This document shows, in pieces, positions 25,479 through 33,416 of a DNA stretch of 49,917 bases. The first letter of the stretch is position 1. Every line of letters begins with the position of its first letter. The translations under genes were made by a program, and so were the position numbers. A model generated the notes under the pieces. That model was not told the DNA's origin. It worked only from the letters and a program-made list of their open reading frames with translations, and did no database searches. The stretch lies in IMG/VR virus record IMGVR_UViG_2718218131_000006. The stretch is one strand, 5' to 3'. The stretch comes from a virus. Lineage: Duplodnaviria > Heunggongvirae > Uroviricota > Caudoviricetes.

Positions 25479-26234
25479 ATGAGTGATAACCTGTTAAACA
25501 AACTGACCCAACTGAAACTCCCGGCGATGGCCGGGAGCCTGATACGGCAGCGGGAAACGCCTCAGACCTACGACGAACTGTCGTTCGAGGAAAGGCTGAC
25601 GCTGCTGGTTGATGACGAGCTTCTGAGCAGGGAAAACAGCCGTGTGGCACGGTTGAGAAAAAATGCCGGCCTGAAATACCAGGCAACACCGGAAGGGCTG
25701 CGCTATCCGGCCTCAAGAGGTCTGCGGGCTGAACAGATGAGAGAACTGCTGAACGGCCACTACATAACCCACAGGAAAAACCTGCTGATAACCGGTCCGA
25801 CAGGATGTGGCAAGAGCTGGATAGCCAATGCGCTGGGCGAACAGGCATGTCGACAGAAACACAGCGTCCGGTACTGTAGAACCGGGCGATTACTGGAACA
25901 ACTGGCTCAGGGACGTGTTGATGGCAGCTGGCTGAAATATCTGAAACAGTTGCAAAAAATACAGGTTCTAATCCTGGACGATCTGGGGCTGGAACAGTTA
26001 AGTAACGCCCAGTGTAATGACCTTCTGGAGCTCATAGAGGATCGTTACGGACAAAGCAGCACGATAGTGGTAAGCCAGTTCCCGGTAGATAAATGGCATG
26101 GTCTGATGGAGAACCCAACAACAGCAGATGCCATCCTGGACAGACTGGTACATAACTCACACCGGGTGGTCCTTCAGGGAGAGTCACTGAGGAAAAATCC
26201 CCCGGTAGTGGAAAGCAGCGAAAAAACGCGTTAA
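25479..26234 (+). CDS. istB: IS21-family helper ATPase IstB
   Basis: Walker A motif ITGPTGCGKSW, Walker B LILDDLG; typical IstB length. Confidence 0.88.
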   Translation: MSDNLLNKLTQLKLPAMAGSLIRQRETPQTYDELSFEERLTLLVDDELLSRENSRVARLRKNAGLKYQATPEGLRYPASRGLRAEQMRELLNGHYITHRKNLLITGPTGCGKSWIANALGEQACRQKHSVRYCRTGRLLEQLAQGRVDGSWLKYLKQLQKIQVLILDDLGLEQLSNAQCNDLLELIEDRYGQSSTIVVSQFPVDKWHGLMENPTTADAILDRLVHNSHRVVLQGESLRKNPPVVESSEKTR

Positions 26235-26341
26235 AAAGCGGTAGAAAAAGTTAAGTTCCCGGTTGATCGAATGGATGCGAATCGCTGATCGGACTTCGAT
26301 GCCAATCCGTGATCGAATAGAGCGGAATACGCACCTTTATC

Positions 26342-26923
26342 ACTGTGATGGACTGTGCCGGACGGTCGACGGGCCCATAACGCCTGCTCCAGAGCATCCA
26401 GCACGAATGTCGTTTCCATAGACGATGAGACCCGCCACCCCACGATGTATCCGGCAAACACATCAATGATGAACGCCACATAGACGCCCCCCTGCCATGT
26501 GCTGACGTAAGTAAAATCAGCCACCCACAACTGGTCAGGACGTTCTGCCACAAACTGACGGTTTACGCGGTCGCCTGCGGCAACGGCTTTCCGGCTGACG
26601 GTAGTGCGGACCTTTTTACCCCGGAGAACACCGGCAAGTCCCATAACCGCCATGAGGCGCGCCACTGTACATCTGGCTACCCTGATTCCTTCCCGTAACA
26701 ACTGACGCCAGACTTTACGCACACCGTATACCTGATGATTCCCATCGTATACGCGCAGTATCTCTTTCTTCAGCCAGTCATCGCGCTGCGCACGGGCACT
26801 GCGTTTATCAGGATGATGTCGCTGTTGCTGACAGTGGTAATACGTTGACGGGGCAATATGTAGTTCACTGCATACCGGTCCGACCCCGTACAGCTTACGC
26901 AGCTTATCCAGCAGTGGCATCAC
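26342..26923 (-). pseudogene. IS629 transposase orfB, N-terminal fragment (interrupted)
   Basis: ...DQLWVADFTYVSTWQGGVYVAFIIDVFAGYIVGW...HHSDKG, then runs into IS21 end sequence. Confidence 0.8.
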
Positions 26924-27246
26924 TTTTTCCAGAGGCGGTCGAACTCCGCCTTTGCAAAATAAGCGGAAGCCTGGCGAAGGATATCGTTACTGCGGCGCAG
27001 TTCACGATTTTCACGTTCCAGCTCTTTCAGACGCTGACGTTCAGCGGTGGTGAGCCCGCCATCACCGCCTCCGGTATCCCGCTCATGCTGGCGTACCCAG
27101 ACACGCAGAGTCTCCGGTGTACAGCCAATCTTTGGGGCAATGGAACAAATTGCCGCCCACTGTGAGTCATATTCGCCCTGACTTTCCAGAACCATACGAA
27201 TCGCCCTCTGACGGACTTCGGGGGAAAAACGAGTATTTTTAGTCAT
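26920..27246 (-). CDS. IS629 OrfA (helix-turn-helix, leucine-zipper transposase subunit)
   Basis: [57 protein letters not shown] matches my memory of IS629 OrfA. Confidence 0.85.
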
Positions 27247-27416
27247 CCTGTTTACCTCTTTCTCAGGGAGTTTAGTCTCCAGGATTCCCGGGGCGGTTCA
27301 AACCACGTCAAATAATTAATTATGACGCAGGTATCGTATTAATTGATCTGCATCAACTTAACGTAAAAACAACTTCAGACAATACAAATCAGCGACACTG
27401 AATACGGGGCAACCTC

Positions 27417-27641
27417 ATGTCAACGAAGAACAGAACCCGCAGAAAAACAACCCGCAACATCCGCTTTCCTAACCAAATGATTGAACAAATTAACATCGCT
27501 CTTGATCAGAAAGGTTCAGGTAATTTTTCAGCGTGGGTTATTGAAGCCTGCAGAAGAAGATTAATTAATGAAAAACATGCTCAATTTGTACCCAACAAAG
27601 ACAAACACGACCAGAGCACCTGTTCAGACAGGTTTACTTAA
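27417..27641 (+). CDS. Small putative ribbon-helix-helix DNA-binding protein
   Basis: 74 aa with basic N-terminus; strand-helix-helix pattern IRFPNQMIEQINIALDQKGSGNFSAWVIEACRRRL; terminator follows. Confidence 0.45.
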   Translation: MSTKNRTRRKTTRNIRFPNQMIEQINIALDQKGSGNFSAWVIEACRRRLINEKHAQFVPNKDKHDQSTCSDRFT

Positions 27642-27659
27642 ACGACTTATATATGACAC

Positions 27660-27686
27660 AAAAAGCGACCACTAAAGTCGCTTTTT
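27660..27686. terminator. Bidirectional terminator between the convergent RHH-like gene and the pch-like gene
   Basis: GCGAC-cactaaa-GTCGC hairpin flanked by an A-run and a T-run. Confidence 0.65.
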
Positions 27687-27722
27687 CTTATGGTAACAGG
27701 CAATAACGCTCTCAGATATTTT

Positions 27723-28037
27723 TTAGCATTTTTTTGACCGCGCGTTTCCGGACGTATTCTGTTCTCCTGTCCCTTTATATCGTCGGAATACCCGCCGCTC
27801 TTCAAATCCCATTCCCAACTCAGAATGTAGTCTGTTGACCGCTTGTTTTATTTCGGTCAGGTTCACCGGTGAAACCGGAGTCCGGCGCGCCTTACGCAAA
27901 CACTCTGCTCGTTTCTGTGCCGCCACTTTTCTTTTCTGGTCATCACTTAGCTGTACCATCACTTTTGCCCATCGTTCAGCTGCTCTCCGGTACAGTCCTT
28001 TTTTCTCCAGACATTCTGCCACGTGATCATGTAGCAT
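27723..28037 (-). CDS. pch: PerC-family transcriptional regulator (Pch-like, the prophage-encoded activator of LEE in EHEC)
   Basis: 104 aa starting MLHDHVAECLEKKGLYRRAAERWAKVMVQ; GLYRRAAERW is the PerC signature as I recall it; long AT-rich upstream region. Confidence 0.6.
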   Translation of the reverse strand: MLHDHVAECLEKKGLYRRAAERWAKVMVQLSDDQKRKVAAQKRAECLRKARRTPVSPVNLTEIKQAVNRLHSELGMGFEERRVFRRYKGTGEQNTSGNARSKKC

Positions 28038-28502
28038 AAGTGACCTCCGATTATCTACAGACTGCCATCCTGAATTTACCTTCCCTTAATGAAATAACAA
28101 TAAAAAACAAACCACGCAAAAACAATAAAATAACACACAAAAAAAACTAAATAATAAACAAAAATAATCACCTTATTTTATTATTTTTTGAGGGGGCAAT
28201 TACTGAACAAAAAACGCTGACTATATACTCAAAACCAAACAACTATTCTGCCAATCAGGTATCATGGCAACACACGGAATTACCGTGTTTTTGCCTTCTC
28301 TGCCCATACAATACGGGCATATACTTCATACTCTATTGTAATATTTCTATCCATGCGCCCCACTCCATTTACCTGTAAATAATATTCAAAATATTTATCA
28401 CAGAAATCGTTTTTGTCCATGAACTGAGCACACTATAAAGTCCGGAACTGACTCTTTGTTAAATTACCTTAACGTTACCAGTAACACCTTCATAACAAAA
28501 CA

Positions 28503-28970
28503 TCACGGTATACACTGGGTACGGATATATTCCTGTGCTCCTTCCAGTTGCTTCTGCATTGCCATCAGCCGTTCTCTGAGGATGAAATAATCCCGTTCAG
28601 CGGCTTCTGCCAGTCGGGGACCGGTTGCATTATCCACGCCGGAGGTGATGGGGGCTTTACGCAAGGAGCCTGGACAGTTGGCGTTGATGCGCAGGCGCTT
28701 ACGACCAGCGGCAACATCAGCACGCAGAGTTTCATTTTCAGCTCTCGCATCGGCTAATTCCCTCGAGTATCTGGCATCAAGTGCAGCGACATCACGCTGG
28801 CGTACCTGCATATCAGTAATTGTCACGTTCGCCAGCTTCAGCTCACTGGCTTTTTTATCGCGTTGCGCTTTGTAGGTAATGGCGTTATCGCGGTAATGAT
28901 TCAGCCCCAGACTAAGCACACCACAGGCTACCAGCAGGACAATAATCACCACACACAGAACACGGTTCAT
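28503..28970 (-). CDS. Rz: Rz inner-membrane spanin
   Basis: N-terminal transmembrane helix then coiled coil; follows the endolysin; contains the embedded Rz1 frame. Confidence 0.85.
28565..28750 (-). CDS. Rz1: Rz1 outer-membrane lipoprotein spanin, embedded in Rz in the +1 frame
   Basis: 61-aa ORF wholly inside Rz; lipobox LVVSAC then proline-rich sequence. Confidence 0.8.
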
Positions 28971-29121
28971 ATCCCCCTCACCCCACCAGCCATGACAAAG
29001 TTAAGACGCGCCAGGCAGTGGAAAAGCAAATAGCAACCAGCATTAGTGAAAATGAAATGCCGACGATTACACAGAGGATCTTCGCCAGCGTTATGAGCTT
29101 GTCTGACATGCTTAATCCTCT

Positions 29122-29304
29122 TCACGATTTCAACGCAATGACCAGTTTTGCCAGCCCATACAGCATCGGAGACACAGCAATACCGACCGCCACCCACTTA
29201 ATAGCAAAAGCCAGCGCTCTGCTGACGTCATCAGTTACAGGCGCTTTCAGTTCAAGGCCGTTTTTCATAGTCAATCTCAACAGAATTCGTTTATACTTTC
29301 CCAT
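29122..29304 (-). CDS. Hypothetical small membrane protein between R and Rz
   Basis: 60 aa from MGKYKRILL with AAGGGAGAA ribosome-binding site; C-terminal hydrophobic helix; a hairpin lies upstream at 29337-29372. Confidence 0.35.
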   Translation of the reverse strand: MGKYKRILLRLTMKNGLELKAPVTDDVSRALAFAIKWVAVGIAVSPMLYGLAKLVIALKS

Positions 29305-29459
29305 GTTCTCCCTTGCCTTACTCAAGGTCAGAAACACAAAACCCCGTTTGCGGCCAACAAACGGGGTTTTACTTTTATTCACTTAGTTTTTGCCAGTTCG
29401 CAGGATTTCGTGTTATCCGCCCGCGTTGGCCAACGTCATTTTTCAGCAAAATATTCTGC

Positions 29460-29993
29460 TTATCTGTCAATTCCCCAGCACGCCAGTGCACTTTCCTGGT
29501 CTCGCCGGGATACCTGACCGTAGCAATTATTTGAGCGGATACGGCAGTCTCTGCCACCGTCCTTAATCCACCAGCGAATCGCTTCGCAGGCACCTTTTCG
29601 ATCACCTGCATTAATCCGTCTGTAAAACGTAGACGGGAAACACTTACCGGGGCCAATGTTATAAGGACAAAATGACGCGATACCCGCCTTCTGGGGTTCG
29701 GTCAGCGGTACTTTAATATTGCGCTCCACCCACTCCAGCGCCTTATCACGTTCAATGGCGTTAACCTGGTCGCACTTTTCCTTCGATAACTTCATACCCG
29801 GGACGACAGGCTTACCATCCACTCGGGTGGCACCGCGGCAGATGGTCCAGATCCCCGCACCATCACGGTATGCCGTGGTGTGGTTACCTTCTTTTTCGTC
29901 AAGAAACTGGTCGAGGATTTCAGGCGCAGACGTCCCTGCACCAATCAGCGCCAGAACGGCAGCCGACAGGCCGTATCTGATTTTTGCGTTCAT
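29460..29993 (-). CDS. R: Signal-arrest-release (SAR) endolysin, T4-lysozyme-like
   Basis: N-terminal weakly hydrophobic SAR segment LSAAVLALIGAGTSAPE; lysozyme-like core in the family of phage 21 R. Confidence 0.85.
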   Translation of the reverse strand: MNAKIRYGLSAAVLALIGAGTSAPEILDQFLDEKEGNHTTAYRDGAGIWTICRGATRVDGKPVVPGMKLSKEKCDQVNAIERDKALEWVERNIKVPLTEPQKAGIASFCPYNIGPGKCFPSTFYRRINAGDRKGACEAIRWWIKDGGRDCRIRSNNCYGQVSRRDQESALACWGIDR

Positions 29994-30364
29994 GGATATT
30001 TATCAGGATTTATCGGTTTCTGAACCCTGGATATGTTAAGCATTCAGCCCGTCAGTGGTAGGACACTGGCGCTCTGGTTAAGGATTATGGGGGATGCAGG
30101 CTGGGCTACCCCATCTGAGGATTTGATATGCAAAAAGAAGTTTTTATCAATATTACAGCTGACTGCTCATCTCCTGCATCAACAGCAAAAGAAATTGAAG
30201 CTCTTAAATATATGATTACAGTAATATTTACCGTATTGGACCAGAATGAAAAAAAATGGAATCATTCATCAATTAAATGAACATGTAAATAATCCATATA
30301 TCAAAAGCAATCTGGAAATGTTGCTACCAATGAAAGATATTGGAAAACCAACTGAAACAAAAGG

Positions 30365-30679
30365 CTAACAACCCGTAATCGAGTTATCTGAACTGTTAAT
30401 TTTTATGGTATACCGCGCCTCTGAACAGGGGCGCGTTTCTGGCAACAGCTCGTCCCCTTCACATAACCCGGCAGCAACATCCAGGAAGACCTGTCTGATG
30501 CTCCTTCTGGCTGCTGCCTCATAAAACTCCAGCGCGGCACCTTCAACACGGTCCAGCGAGATGTCCAGGTCAAAAATTTCACCGTCAAAGCATTTTTTGT
30601 CCCGTAACGCTAAAGTTACCGTAACTTTATTCTCAAAATTGCGGATCCCTTTCACAATCACTTCATAGTTTTGAGTCAT
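30365..30679 (-). CDS. Hypothetical protein between holin and endolysin
   Basis: 104-aa ORF with GGGGAGAG ribosome-binding site, starting 5 nt after the holin stop. Confidence 0.55.
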   Translation of the reverse strand: MTQNYEVIVKGIRNFENKVTVTLALRDKKCFDGEIFDLDISLDRVEGAALEFYEAAARRSIRQVFLDVAAGLCEGDELLPETRPCSEARYTIKINSSDNSITGC

Positions 30680-30683
30680 TGAA

Positions 30684-30899
30684 TTACTCTCCCCGTGCAG
30701 CCTTACGCTTGTCTTCTCTGATTTTGAAGTACAGATTTGTCAGATAAGTCAGGAAGCCTAGGACCAGACTCCCCAGTACACCAATCGCAGCCCACTGTGA
30801 CGGACTGACCTGATCAAGCCACTGTAAAAACCAGTAGCCAGCACTGCCTGCGGAGGTGCCATAGGCGACACCCGTTGTTAACTTATCCATGGATTTCAT
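30684..30899 (-). CDS. S: Class II pinholin (S21-like) with dual-start motif Met1-Lys-Ser-Met4
   Basis: 71 aa [45 protein letters not shown]...[13 protein letters not shown] matches my memory of phage 21 S; GAGGTGGGG ribosome-binding site. Confidence 0.85.
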
Positions 30900-30966
30900 A
30901 ACCCCACCTCGCAGATGCGGGTGCTGTGTAATGGAAATAAAAAGGCCACCTGACGTGGCCACCAGA

Positions 30967-32019
30967 TTATTTCCCCACCAGCTCGTTTATCTCTTTCACT
31001 GTCTGATTAAACCGCTCTGACTCAAGCTCAACACCTAAGGCCCGACGCCCCAGCGCCATTGCTGCTTTTATTGTGGAACCGGATCCCATAAAAAAATCAG
31101 CAACCAGATCACCTGGTCGACTACTGGCATTGATTATTTGCCTGAGCATATCCGCCGGTTTCTCACACGGATGTTTCCCCGGGTAGAACTGAACGGGTTT
31201 ATGCATCCAGACATCGGCATAAGGCACGGAGACTGATACGGAGAAATAGCGCCGGAGAGATTTAAACTCATCCAGCAATTCAGAATATTTACGATTCAGT
31301 GAATCATAAGATGCCACCAGCTGGTGGTGTGGTTGTTCCAGTTGTTGTTCCTGAAACTTCTCTGCCGCTATACGGGAAAACAGTGCCTGTAACTTCCGAT
31401 AGTCATCCTCATTCGGCAACTGCCACTGACTGGCACCAAACCAGTGGGAAACCATATTTTTCTTACCTGTGGCTTCGGCAATCTGTTTTGCCGTTATACC
31501 CAGTTCGGCACGAGCATCCCTGAAATACGATATCAGCGGTGCCATTATATGCTGTTTGAGTTCCCTTTCTTTTGCCGCATAGCCGTCATTTTTTGGCTGA
31601 TATGGCCCCTGATAATGTTCAGCAAACAGAATGCGCTCTGTTGCCGGGAAATACGCCCGCAGGCTTTCCTTGTTGCACCCGTTCCAGCGTCCGGACGGCT
31701 TCGCCCAGATAATGTGGTTCAGCACATTAAAGCGCTCACGCATCATGATTTCGGTGTCAGCTGCCAGGCGATGACCACAGAACAGGTAAAGACTTCCGGC
31801 AGGCTTCAGTACCCGCCAGAACTGCGCCAGACACTGCTCCAGCCATTTCAGATAATCATCGTCCCCCTTCCACTGGTTATCCCAGCCCTCGGGCTTCACT
31901 TTAAAGTATGGCGGGTCTGTGACTATCAGATCGACAGAGTTTTCCGGTAAGGTCTGGATAAATTCCAGGCAATCAGCGTTGATTAACTCACAACTGGATA
32001 TTTTTACAGTATTAGCCAT
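30967..32019 (-). CDS. DNA N6-adenine methyltransferase
   Basis: 350 aa with catalytic motif IV DPPYF (LIVTDPPYF). Confidence 0.85.
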
Positions 32020-32172
32020 AGATCAATAAGCACTTCTCTGATAGGCTCATACCGCTTTTGCGCAAAGCAGATGGGCCTGAGGTTTGCTTGTGACCCCAAC
32101 GCATGAGCAGATGGCTGGCAGGTGCCGCTAACACCCACCAGCCGCCCATTACCACAAATTAAAAAGCCTTCA

Positions 32173-32367
32173 CTACGGAAGGCGTCTGTAACAACCGAAC
32201 TGATAATCTGCCAAGCCCGCCATAACAAGCTGGGTCAGTATTAACTGGCAGCGTTCGCGTGAAAGGTAAGTATTCTGCGCAATTTCCCCGACGGTCGCCG
32301 GTTCGGTGACGCTTAATTCATTAAACACAACTCTGGCAGTTTCAGTCATATCCTGCTGTTTTAGCAT
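32173..32367 (-). CDS. Hypothetical small protein (possible winged-helix)
   Basis: 64 aa with AAGGGAAAAG ribosome-binding site; lies between tR' and the methyltransferase. Confidence 0.45.
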   Translation of the reverse strand: MLKQQDMTETARVVFNELSVTEPATVGEIAQNTYLSRERCQLILTQLVMAGLADYQFGCYRRLP

Positions 32368-32489
32368 GTCTTTTCCCTTTTCTGGTTAACGTGACATACC
32401 AATAACTCTTGTCGAAAAAGCCAGCAAGCTGAAAGACCTGTATTCGCAACCACCAGCGCGTTTAACGTTCTGTGCTGTTTTTCGGACAC

Positions 32490-32515
32490 AAAAAAACCCG
32501 CCTGGTGGCGGGCTG
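32490..32515 (-). terminator. tR'-like rho-independent terminator downstream of the late promoter
   Basis: Minus strand: GCCCGCC-acca-GGCGGGT then TTTTTTT, about 80 nt downstream of the Q-like stop. Confidence 0.75.
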
Positions 32516-32594
32516 CAAAAATTCTTCTAACGTCAGGCATAAAACGCCCATCGTTAGGGCGAATTTACCACAGATTCCGGAAAAATCAACCTTG

Positions 32595-33416
32595 TTATCT
32601 GGTTACCTTTTTTAACTGTCGCTCCGCCCATGCCTCTTCAATGTCAAACCGAACCACCAGCTTGTCATAGAATTGCTTAACAGTTTTTTCCCATGACGCG
32701 CGTGTTATCTGATTTGTGACCTCGCATATGGCATTAAATGCCTCCGTTGATGGCAGTCTTTCATAGCCACGACCGCCACAACGCTGGCAGTCCCTGATAA
32801 CAGGCATACCACGTTTTACCGACTCTTCACGATGAATGGCGACACCACGCCCACGGCAATCCTTACAGGCGGTGGAGACCTCACCCTTTCCCCCGCATTC
32901 AGGACAGGCAACTTTTACCACTTCCCGGACTTTTTTCCATTCTTCCCAGTAAGACGGATACACACCCTTCGTACACTTTGCCCATACTGGCGGCTTGCCA
33001 TCCGGATACTGAACCTTGTTTGTAAAAACTACGCTTTCAATAAATTTTTCCCCATGGCAACAAGGGCACTGCTTTTTACTCGCTGCGCTGCGGGCATAAT
33101 CCTCAAAAGCATACGAAGCCATAATGCGCATCACTGCCGGTTTTATTTCTGCCGGAAGTTTTCTTAACGCCGCCACGCGATCGCACTGACTTAATGCATA
33201 ATCTGCCAGTAATTCTGTTGCCCGCGCCCTGTCATTCATACTAATGCCCATTTTCCCCAGGAACGCAGAAAATCCAATCTCAGCACGGTTTTGTGTCATA
33301 CCCTGCGCAGCCATCACATCAGTGATACTCAGCGTATCTTTTGACGTCGAGACGGATGCATCAGTCAGGCCAGGCGATTTTGGGGAGTAGTATTTCGGTA
33401 AATCTTCCAGTTTCAT
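32595..33416 (-). CDS. Putative late-gene antiterminator (Q-like), zinc-ribbon rich
   Basis: 273 aa with four CxxC pairs; placed immediately upstream of a promoter-plus-terminator and the lysis genes. Confidence 0.55.
   Translation of the reverse strand: MKLEDLPKYYSPKSPGLTDASVSTSKDTLSITDVMAAQGMTQNRAEIGFSAFLGKMGISMNDRARATELLADYALSQCDRVAALRKLPAEIKPAVMRIMASYAFEDYARSAASKKQCPCCHGEKFIESVVFTNKVQYPDGKPPVWAKCTKGVYPSYWEEWKKVREVVKVACPECGGKGEVSTACKDCRGRGVAIHREESVKRGMPVIRDCQRCGGRGYERLPSTEAFNAICEVTNQITRASWEKTVKQFYDKLVVRFDIEEAWAERQLKKVTR

Follow-up and report, generated by a model that had tools for sequence, protein, structure and literature searches.

We find that positions 28503-30962 of a 49,917-nucleotide (nt) Caudoviricetes sequence (IMG/VR record IMGVR_UViG_2718218131_000006; this whole stretch is called the window in what follows) most probably hold the late-operon lysis cassette of a lambdoid Escherichia coli prophage, of the type known from phage 21 and from Shiga toxin (Stx) phages, with accessory genes in two mosaic slots. 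We put the probability of this reading at roughly four in five. The cassette lies on the minus strand, and the region is 100% identical to the chromosome of E. coli PK8241, where all of its open reading frames (ORFs) are annotated. In minus-strand order, a methyltransferase gene is followed by a hairpin, the holin gene S, an ORF of 104 amino acids (aa), an AT-rich gap, the endolysin gene R, a second hairpin, two small ORFs that we call o60 and o43, and the spanin gene Rz with Rz1 inside it. S and R are separated by 782 nt, occupied by the 104-aa ORF, which belongs to the YdfR family, and by an ORF in reverse orientation; R and Rz are separated by 489 nt, which hold the hairpin, o60 and o43.

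A preliminary description of this region had named a 71-aa holin, a 104-aa ORF, a signal-anchor-release (SAR) endolysin, a hairpin, a 60-aa ORF and Rz, and all of these are present on the minus strand. They are not chance findings, the Pfam E values running from 1e-19 to 1e-46 and the two small ORFs being under frame-specific purifying selection. Its assignment of the cassette to the phage 21 type of lysis agrees with what we find, namely an S21-family pinholin with Met1 and Met4, a SAR endolysin resembling R21 and an Rz/Rz1 spanin of the embedded kind. It had counted two extra ORFs, but there are four extra coding features, i.e., YdfR, a frameshifted reverse ORF, the 60-aa ORF and a 43-aa ORF; the features it overlooked are the 43-aa membrane ORF adjoining Rz and the AT-rich reverse-strand ORF between YdfR and R. 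The end coordinate that it gave, 30962, belongs to a GTG-extended version of the holin ORF 30684-30899. That the roles of the extra ORFs are unknown is essentially still true, the exception being a 2026 report on K-12 YdfR and RNase E (PMC13232886).

The core lysis genes

The S gene (30684..30899, minus strand) encodes a 71-aa protein beginning with MKSMDKL, a pinholin/antiholin of the S21 type by its match to PF04971 ('Bacteriophage P21 holin S', E 3e-35), in which residues 5-67 cover profile positions 1-63 of 64; members of this family have about 68-71 aa. It also matches phrog_9876 and phrog_20, which are both holin PHROGs. A dual start can be read from the sequence, with Met1 at 30899, Met4 at 30890 and Lys2-Ser3 in between, and initiation at these two codons would be expected to give an antiholin and a holin form of the protein. 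The first hydrophobic segment, transmembrane domain (TMD) 1, is rich in Gly, Ala and Ser, only weakly hydrophobic and SAR-like. The phage 21 pinholin carries a G40xxxS44xxxG48 zipper in TMD2, and G40, S44 and G48 are likewise present in TMD2 of S.

Two predicted structures lie ahead of S on the minus strand. A GC-rich, terminator-like hairpin followed by a T-run, GGCCACGTCAGGTGGCC TTTTTATTTC (30944..30960), separates the stop codon of the methyltransferase gene from S. A second, small stem predicted in window 30880-30975 (fold z-score -2.4) pairs part of the Shine-Dalgarno (SD) sequence of S and is reminiscent of the 'sdi' structure of lambda, which sets the ratio of antiholin to holin.

The R gene (29460..29993, minus strand) encodes a protein of 177 aa, a SAR endolysin like that of phage 21 (PF00959, E 2e-25), with the catalytic triad E35-x8-D44-x5-T50, as read from the sequence. 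Residues 7-24, YGLSAAVLALIGAGTSAP, form the SAR segment, which is weakly hydrophobic and rich in Ala, Gly and Ser. There is no Cys in residues 1-30, and hence none in the SAR segment, and R would accordingly be expected to be activated by refolding and not by disulfide isomerisation of the P1 Lyz type. In a phmmer search, R aligned to the full-length phage 21 lysozyme (3HDE, E 1e-17), with query residue 11 against target residue 7, and to RrrD of DLP12 (4ZPU), also from residue 11, which is inside the SAR segment.

Rz, the i-spanin, is a 155-aa protein of the class with an N-terminal TMD (28503..28970, minus strand; PF03245, E 2e-46), and Rz1, the o-spanin lipoprotein, is embedded in its +1 frame (28565..28750, minus strand; PF06085, E 4e-19; lipobox VSAC). 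By homology, and going by the mechanism described for phage 21, S, whose Met1 form would be the antiholin, would depolarise the inner membrane through small holes that do not let a soluble endolysin out. Depolarisation would release and activate R, which would have been exported by the Sec pathway and tethered to the membrane and would now refold, and the Rz/Rz1 spanin would then disrupt the outer membrane. Published surveys find a pinholin together with a SAR endolysin in about 99% of Stx phages (PMC8136144, PMC10462455).

The slot between S and R

The 104-aa ORF between S and R (30365..30679, minus strand) encodes a soluble protein of the DUF1327/YdfR family (PF07041, E 1e-37). The PF07041 match covers the N-terminal 85-95 residues of such proteins, and an alignment of 30 YdfR homologues has 24 invariant columns; the homologues share an invariant core of about 85 residues, followed by variable C-terminal tails; the aligned proteins range from about 100 to 176 aa, and the YdfR-family protein of Stx2 phage 86 reaches 268 aa. 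An AlphaFold2 model of the 104-aa protein (predicted local distance difference test score 63) is built of three strands and a single long helix, with a tail that is disordered, and a profile search of the PDB with the YdfR alignment returned nothing significant.

This position of the gene is a common one. In the Qin prophage of K-12, ydfR lies between holin and lysozyme (essQ-ydfR-rrrQ-rzpQ), and a DUF1327 gene occupies the same place in Stx2 phage 86, in vB_EcoS-783R2 and in the plaque-forming phage PhiR12_2. Our survey of IMG/VR gave 80 related loci, 71 of which have full-length S and R; between the two genes, 48 of these 71 carry a DUF1327 gene and 15 carry other inserts, and in the remaining 8 S abuts R.

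The single piece of functional evidence on the family is the 2026 report. In that work, K-12 YdfR came out of a two-hybrid screen baited with RNase G, bound residues 1-597 of RNase E (the N-terminal catalytic half) and co-purified with RNase E(1-598); it also pulled down DNase-resistant nucleic acid, and RNA co-purifies with it, while few transcripts were altered when it was overproduced (PMC13232886). The same paper cites ydfR as flagged in the Paradis-Bleau envelope screen.

The 371-nt gap between the 104-aa ORF and R is AT-rich, with a GC content down to 0.30-0.32 at 30100-30400. It contains an insert in reverse orientation (30128..30368, plus strand) that in PK8241 carries a 79-aa ORF (WP_032264896, phrog_21218). 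The window has A8 where the otherwise identical PK8241 sequence has A7 (A-run at about 30248-30255, window 30246-30256), so that the plus-strand ORF is split here into two frames, 30128-30280 and 30246-30368. The frameshift could reflect either a real pseudogene or a sequencing error. No match for the reverse ORF was found in Pfam, NCBIfam or PADLOC. Other phages have unrelated reverse ORFs at the same spot, and this AT-rich site is a slot of the moron type.

The slot between R and Rz

The larger of the two small ORFs, o60 (29122..29304, minus strand; RefSeq WP_001303555, phrog_1115), encodes 60 aa, which begin with a basic peptide (KYKRILLRLTMKNGLE.KAPVT) at the N-terminus and have a transmembrane anchor at the C-terminus. 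The smaller, o43 (28978..29109, minus strand; RefSeq WP_001280929, phrog_4906), encodes a predicted single-pass membrane protein of 43 aa. Both are preceded by an SD sequence, GGGAG ahead of the o60 ATG and AGAGGA ahead of the o43 ATG, and the stop codon of o43 lies 7 nt before the ATG of Rz, overlapping the Rz SD.

We compared the ratio of nonsynonymous to synonymous differences (pN/pS) in the three frames by Nei-Gojobori counts on distinct alleles. For o60 the ratio is 0.17 in frame and 1.05 and 3.09 in the other frames, and for o43 it is 0.40 in frame and 0.66 and 1.80 in the others. Both ORFs thus look coding, and this frame-specific purifying selection indicates that they are genuine genes. 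Neither has a match in Pfam, NCBIfam or PADLOC or any similarity to known holin, antiholin, releasin or defence families, and the PHROGs that they match (1115, 4493, 3246, 4906) are all labelled 'unknown function'. A search of the literature on small ORFs, on small RNAs (sRNAs) between R and Rz and on type I toxin-antitoxin candidates in the prophage lysis regions of O157 gave nothing specific.

The insert is widespread. When 28971-29459 was compared by megablast with 5,426 complete E. coli genomes, at least 80% of it was covered in 989, and 1,821 had some match; the carriers include O157:H7, and some genomes hold up to 10 copies. Its spacing is also constant, with 154-156 nt from the R stop to the o60 start in 76 of 77 loci and 2 or 7 nt from the o43 stop to the Rz start in 64 of 67. 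The preliminary description had called the interposed ORFs unusual, but this is not borne out either by the frequency of YdfR between S and R or by that of the R-Rz module.

Relatives of the prophage fill the same slot in other ways. Stx phages have the antirepressor gene ant in place of o60 and keep an o43 homologue before Rz, which is not annotated; in Stx2 phage 86 (our L003, NC_008464) this homologue stands between ant and Rz at 1957-2085 on the minus strand of the locus, with 88% identity, and its first aligned codon is Ile and not Met. In locus L092 the slot contains an o60-like gene and an inserted DNA methyltransferase gene, the product of which is related to the 350-aa methyltransferase of the window. 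vB_EcoS-783R2 (L002) has four consecutive small single-pass membrane ORFs there (1960-2480, minus strand of the locus), which suggests duplication and shuffling of small membrane genes. These four are an ORF of 31/44 aa, an o43-like ORF, a 38-aa ORF that corresponds to the C-terminal half of o60 and starts with GTG, and a 28-aa o60-like ORF ending in RWW.

Genomic contexts of the o60 family

The o60 family is limited to prophages of Escherichia and Salmonella. A profile made from the o60 alignment found 23 matches among 1.84 billion representative proteins, all of them small proteins of the same family except one weak repetitive match, and this search revealed no tie to any larger family; among 50,697 phage records, 14 contain a member. 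Conservation is concentrated in the peptide at the N-terminus, YKRILLRLTMKNGLE.DAPVT.EIS; the anchor is variable. This motif is kept down to 37-54% identity across different genomic contexts. At the nucleotide level, identity within the family is 0.74-0.79 in the first 45 nt after a conserved Tyr codon vs 0.44 in the transmembrane part and 0.30-0.45 just upstream, and the rare Arg codon CGA (in Tyr-x-Arg) is kept in 11 of 11 diverse sequences (29270-29300 of the window and homologous loci).

Members occur in four kinds of context: after a SAR endolysin gene (the window and L092), after the gene for a soluble non-SAR endolysin that is accompanied by a lambda-type holin (L085), after tail-fibre genes, at times as tandem paralogues (L086, L088, L091), and between the major tail protein and tail chaperone genes (L093). 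Tandem paralogues are found at 2440-2900 of L098 and at 2805-3168 of L088, and in L098 near-identical hairpins (AAACGCCCCGGCAG...CTGCCGGGGCGTT) stand on both sides of the first copy, in the manner of a cartridge. In L095 (2465-2799) a 283-aa endolysin precedes an o60-like gene whose 3' end is overlapped by the gene for a 59-aa lipoprotein (LLTGC lipobox), a layout that recalls overlapped pairs of i- and o-spanins, yet the o60-like protein is without a periplasmic domain. Two further candidate loci, L099 and L100, were false positives, GC-rich and with no ORF of the family, and a comparison of o60 with YnfQ, YnfR and YnfN of K-12 Qin and with HK97 gp15 found none of them similar.

These contexts bear on the alternative, implied by the preliminary description, that the interposed ORFs are dedicated regulators of lysis timing that modulate antiholin, releasin or spanin, as T4 RI, P1 LydB and Mu gp25 do. 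Several features speak for it: the ORFs lie inside the cassette in the same orientation and with no promoter of their own, o43 runs into the SD of Rz, the distance from R over the hairpin to o60 is fixed in the 76 of 77 loci given above, and o60 and o43 are predicted to be single-pass inner-membrane proteins like known lysis modulators. The listing of ydfR in the Paradis-Bleau envelope screen, in the form in which PMC13232886 cites it, points the same way. Against it, the occurrence of the family in several contexts, one of which pairs it with a lambda-type holin and a soluble endolysin and others of which lie outside lysis cassettes altogether, speaks against a function bound to the pinholin/SAR mechanism. 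YdfR is moreover missing from many relatives in which S and R are the same, S abutting R directly in the 8 of 71 loci already mentioned, and in others ant or a methyltransferase gene replaces or adjoins o60; nor do searches of Pfam, PHROGs and NCBIfam link the ORFs to any holin, antiholin or releasin family. We regard a dedicated role in lysis timing as possible, though unlikely.

A hairpin and a predicted antisense RNA at o60

Between R and o60 lies a hairpin that resembles a bidirectional intrinsic terminator (29338..29370; -20.7 kcal/mol), with a stem of 13-15 bp that is flanked by an A-tract and, opposite to it, a T-tract, so that there are T-runs on both strands. It is 34 nt upstream of the o60 start codon. 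A hairpin of the same build, A-tract, GC-stem and T-tract, with energies of -18 to -28 kcal/mol, is present in 12 of 12 diverse loci, where it lies upstream of the conserved Tyr codon by 29-60 nt, and the stem sequences differ between loci, which implies compensatory changes.

On the strand opposite to o60, a sigma-70-like promoter, TAGTCA-18-TATACT, is predicted at 29268..29297 (plus strand; 9 of 12 matches). Together with the hairpin it could hypothetically produce an RNA of about 75 nt (75-95 nt across loci), antisense to the SD sequence and start codon of o60. The opposite-strand -10 element, TATACT or TATAAT, is found in 11 of the 12 loci, those that retain the conserved Tyr codon, and is the reverse complement of the codons around it; a -35 element (T[AGT]GTCA or TGGACA) lies exactly 18 nt from the -10 in 9 of these 11, and is absent from the homologues that stand in tail-fibre contexts. 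The predicted antisense RNA of the window, taken as about 80 nt, folds with z = -3.9. Synonymous divergence (pS) in o60 is 0.40-0.45 over the N-terminal 14 codons vs 0.71 over the rest. In the five contexts inspected there is no convincing sense-strand sigma-70 promoter between hairpin and o60 start.

Taken together, these features could mean that o60 and the hairpin form a unit akin to type I toxin-antitoxin loci, in which a constitutive opposite-strand promoter within the first codons of o60 would yield an RNA of 75-95 nt that stops at the hairpin and is perfectly antisense to the SD and start codon; a potentially toxic late membrane protein would thereby be kept silent in the lysogen, until the Q-driven transcript overwhelmed the RNA. 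The persistence of the hairpin in all 12 loci despite divergent stems fits such a unit, as do the good folding of the predicted RNA, the lowered pS of the N-terminal codons and the retention of the -10 hexamer and, at 18 nt, of most -35 elements. The antisense side has a T-tract no worse than that of the sense side, and a better one in L085, L092 and L098, and the hexamer is kept though the residues flanking Tyr vary (K, Q or N before it; K, R, N or T after it). However, the hexamers fall where the protein is conserved most strongly (YKRILLRLTMKNG), and constraint on the codons can explain them. The window promoter agrees with the consensus at only 9 of 12 positions, and sigma-70-like sites are as numerous in the region as chance would give; the loss of the -35 element in tail-fibre contexts also counts against the idea, and in vB_EcoS-783R2 the same hairpin precedes a different small ORF.

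Nor do known RNAs give it support. The antisense site has no match in Rfam, and we found no published sRNA at the R-Rz position; the prophage sRNAs of enterohaemorrhagic E. coli are placed in published papers upstream of the holin gene and not between R and Rz, and the type I survey of Fozo does not list the o60 family. A scan of 27000-33000 with Rfam (E up to 1) gave two sub-threshold chance matches, both outside the cassette, and identified no AgvB, AsxR, Pas or other known sRNA in the cassette. We consider antisense control of a toxic o60 rather unlikely.

A broader and more speculative proposal, and one that we hold to be improbable as a whole, is that the o60 family constitutes a mobile late-gene cartridge, made up of a bidirectional terminator hairpin and a gene for a membrane-tethered, conserved peptide of 27 residues, which has been inserted at no fewer than four, i.e., at least 4, late-operon positions in temperate phages of enterobacteria. 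In lysogens the gene would be silenced by a cis-antisense RNA running from a promoter in its own first codons to the hairpin, and at the end of the lytic cycle it would act as a type-I-toxin-like module, for example as a modulator of lysis or of the membrane. YdfR, separately, might be a phage modulator of RNase E or of RNA that sits within the lysis operon.

Possible expression of the small ORFs from the prophage

A further alternative is that o60 and o43 are morons for lysogenic conversion or superinfection exclusion that are expressed from the prophage, like HK97 gp15. The positions are classic ones for such genes: the homologue in L093 lies between the major tail protein and tail chaperone genes, and gp15 of HK97 is likewise encoded among the tail genes, with the tape measure gene directly downstream. 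Terminators stand on both sides of the homologue in L086 and L098, and the family is narrow and patchy in its distribution and restricted to prophages, with its 23 representatives in the large protein search. However, no sense promoter is visible between hairpin and start codon in any of the contexts inspected, the sequences show no similarity to HK97 gp15, and PADLOC shows no match to a defence family. We find this explanation quite improbable. That the small ORFs are not genes at all and the R-Rz spacer is non-coding mosaic filler, as their shortness, their restricted taxonomic range and the lack of a Pfam or NCBIfam family might suggest, is hardly credible in view of the frame-specific purifying selection, the properly spaced SD sequences of both, the protein motif kept in divergent contexts and the existence of tandem paralogues.

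Interpretation

We favor the reading stated at the outset, that of a lysis cassette of the phage 21/Stx type in a lambdoid prophage, in which the intervals between S and R and between R and Rz are mosaic insertion slots that are used by many relatives too. In the R-Rz slot, o60 and o43 would be two small tail-anchored inner-membrane proteins encoded behind a terminator hairpin. As they have SD sequences of their own and no sense promoter and abut Rz, their synthesis most likely depends solely on the Q-antiterminated late transcript reading through the hairpin. Since relatives exist that are without the accessory genes, or have other genes in their place, these genes are presumably dispensable for the canonical three-step lysis. 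Our best guess is that they are accessory modulators that are expressed late, with YdfR perhaps having RNA or RNase E as its cytoplasmic target and o60 perhaps displaying its conserved peptide of 27 residues on the cytoplasmic side of the membrane.

Some observations weigh against this interpretation. The homologues of o60 among tail genes speak against a lysis-specific role, and conversely, the tight junction of o43 with Rz and the constant position of o60 after an endolysin gene in most loci could mean a dedicated role in lysis and not that of a passenger. The result on YdfR and RNase E comes from overexpression, two-hybrid and pull-down experiments, and the transcriptome was little affected by overproduction. 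In the literature that we searched there is no experimental evidence for translation of o60 or o43, or for an effect of either on lysis.

The cassette itself is a standard lysis operon of the phage 21/Stx-phage type, already sequenced and annotated, with common accessory genes in its two mosaic slots. It is a textbook example, in which every ORF had been annotated before except the plus-strand ORF that is disrupted by the frameshift. What gives it residual value is that very common parts of the lysis operons of E. coli and Stx phages are without known function: DUF1327/YdfR is present in most E. coli genomes, K-12 included, and the o60/o43 pair in about a fifth of the complete genomes. As the timing of lysis governs both phage yield and the release of Shiga toxin, any modulator encoded in the operon would bear on pathogenesis. 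Beyond routine annotation, the points of interest are the report on YdfR and RNase E and the possible antisense control of o60.

Genes flanking the cassette

Upstream of the cassette, a DNA methyltransferase gene whose 350-aa product has a DPPY motif (30967-32019, minus strand) fills the moron site between Q and S, where Shiga-toxin phages have stx and nanS-p. The stretch downstream of Rz (window 27417-28037 and, by identity with locus L001, about 26030-27250) has a gene for a PerC-family regulator, a YlcI/YnfO (DUF3950) gene on the opposite strand and, in the identical PK8241 record, a frameshifted IS3 transposase gene ahead of the terminase gene.

Comparison with known systems

The o60 gene resembles HK97 gene 15 in that both encode a small single-pass membrane protein in a late operon, and the L093 homologue shares the location in a tail cluster. 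The two proteins differ in sequence, without detectable similarity, and in topology, which is opposite, the transmembrane segment of gp15 being at the N-terminus. HK97 gene 15 has an annotated terminator downstream, whereas o60 has its terminator upstream and no visible promoter; gene 15 is described as having a promoter of its own. With type I toxin-antitoxin loci such as hok/sok and zorO/orzO, o60 would share a small single-pass membrane protein and a predicted short RNA on the opposite strand that extends over the SD sequence and start codon to a terminator. It is unlike them in having its transmembrane segment at the C-terminus and its conserved part in a soluble N-terminal peptide, and in lying within a phage late operon with no promoter of its own.

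The core of the cassette has closer relatives. Phage 21 and the DLP12 prophage of K-12 (essD-rrrD-rzpD/rzoD) share with it the S21-family holin with the MKSM start, the R21/RrrD-like SAR endolysin and the position of Rz1 within Rz. In both, S, R and Rz are contiguous, unlike in the window with its spacers of 782 and 489 nt. The Qin prophage of K-12 (essQ-ydfR-rrrQ-rzpQ/rzoQ) likewise has a DUF1327 gene between holin and lysozyme in the same orientation, and tblastn identities between Qin and the window are 64% for YdfR, 91% for R and 86% for S. In Qin, however, ydfR overlaps rrrQ and there is no reverse insert, and R abuts a spanin gene of the DUF2514 type with no small ORFs in between.

The cassette of Stx2 phage 86 (S, a YdfR-family gene, a reverse ORF, R, ant, Rz/Rz1) has the same backbone and the same two slots. 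It differs in carrying the antirepressor gene in place of o60 and in the C-terminal part of its longer YdfR-family protein, and upstream of S the methyltransferase gene of the window stands where Stx phages carry stx and nanS-p.

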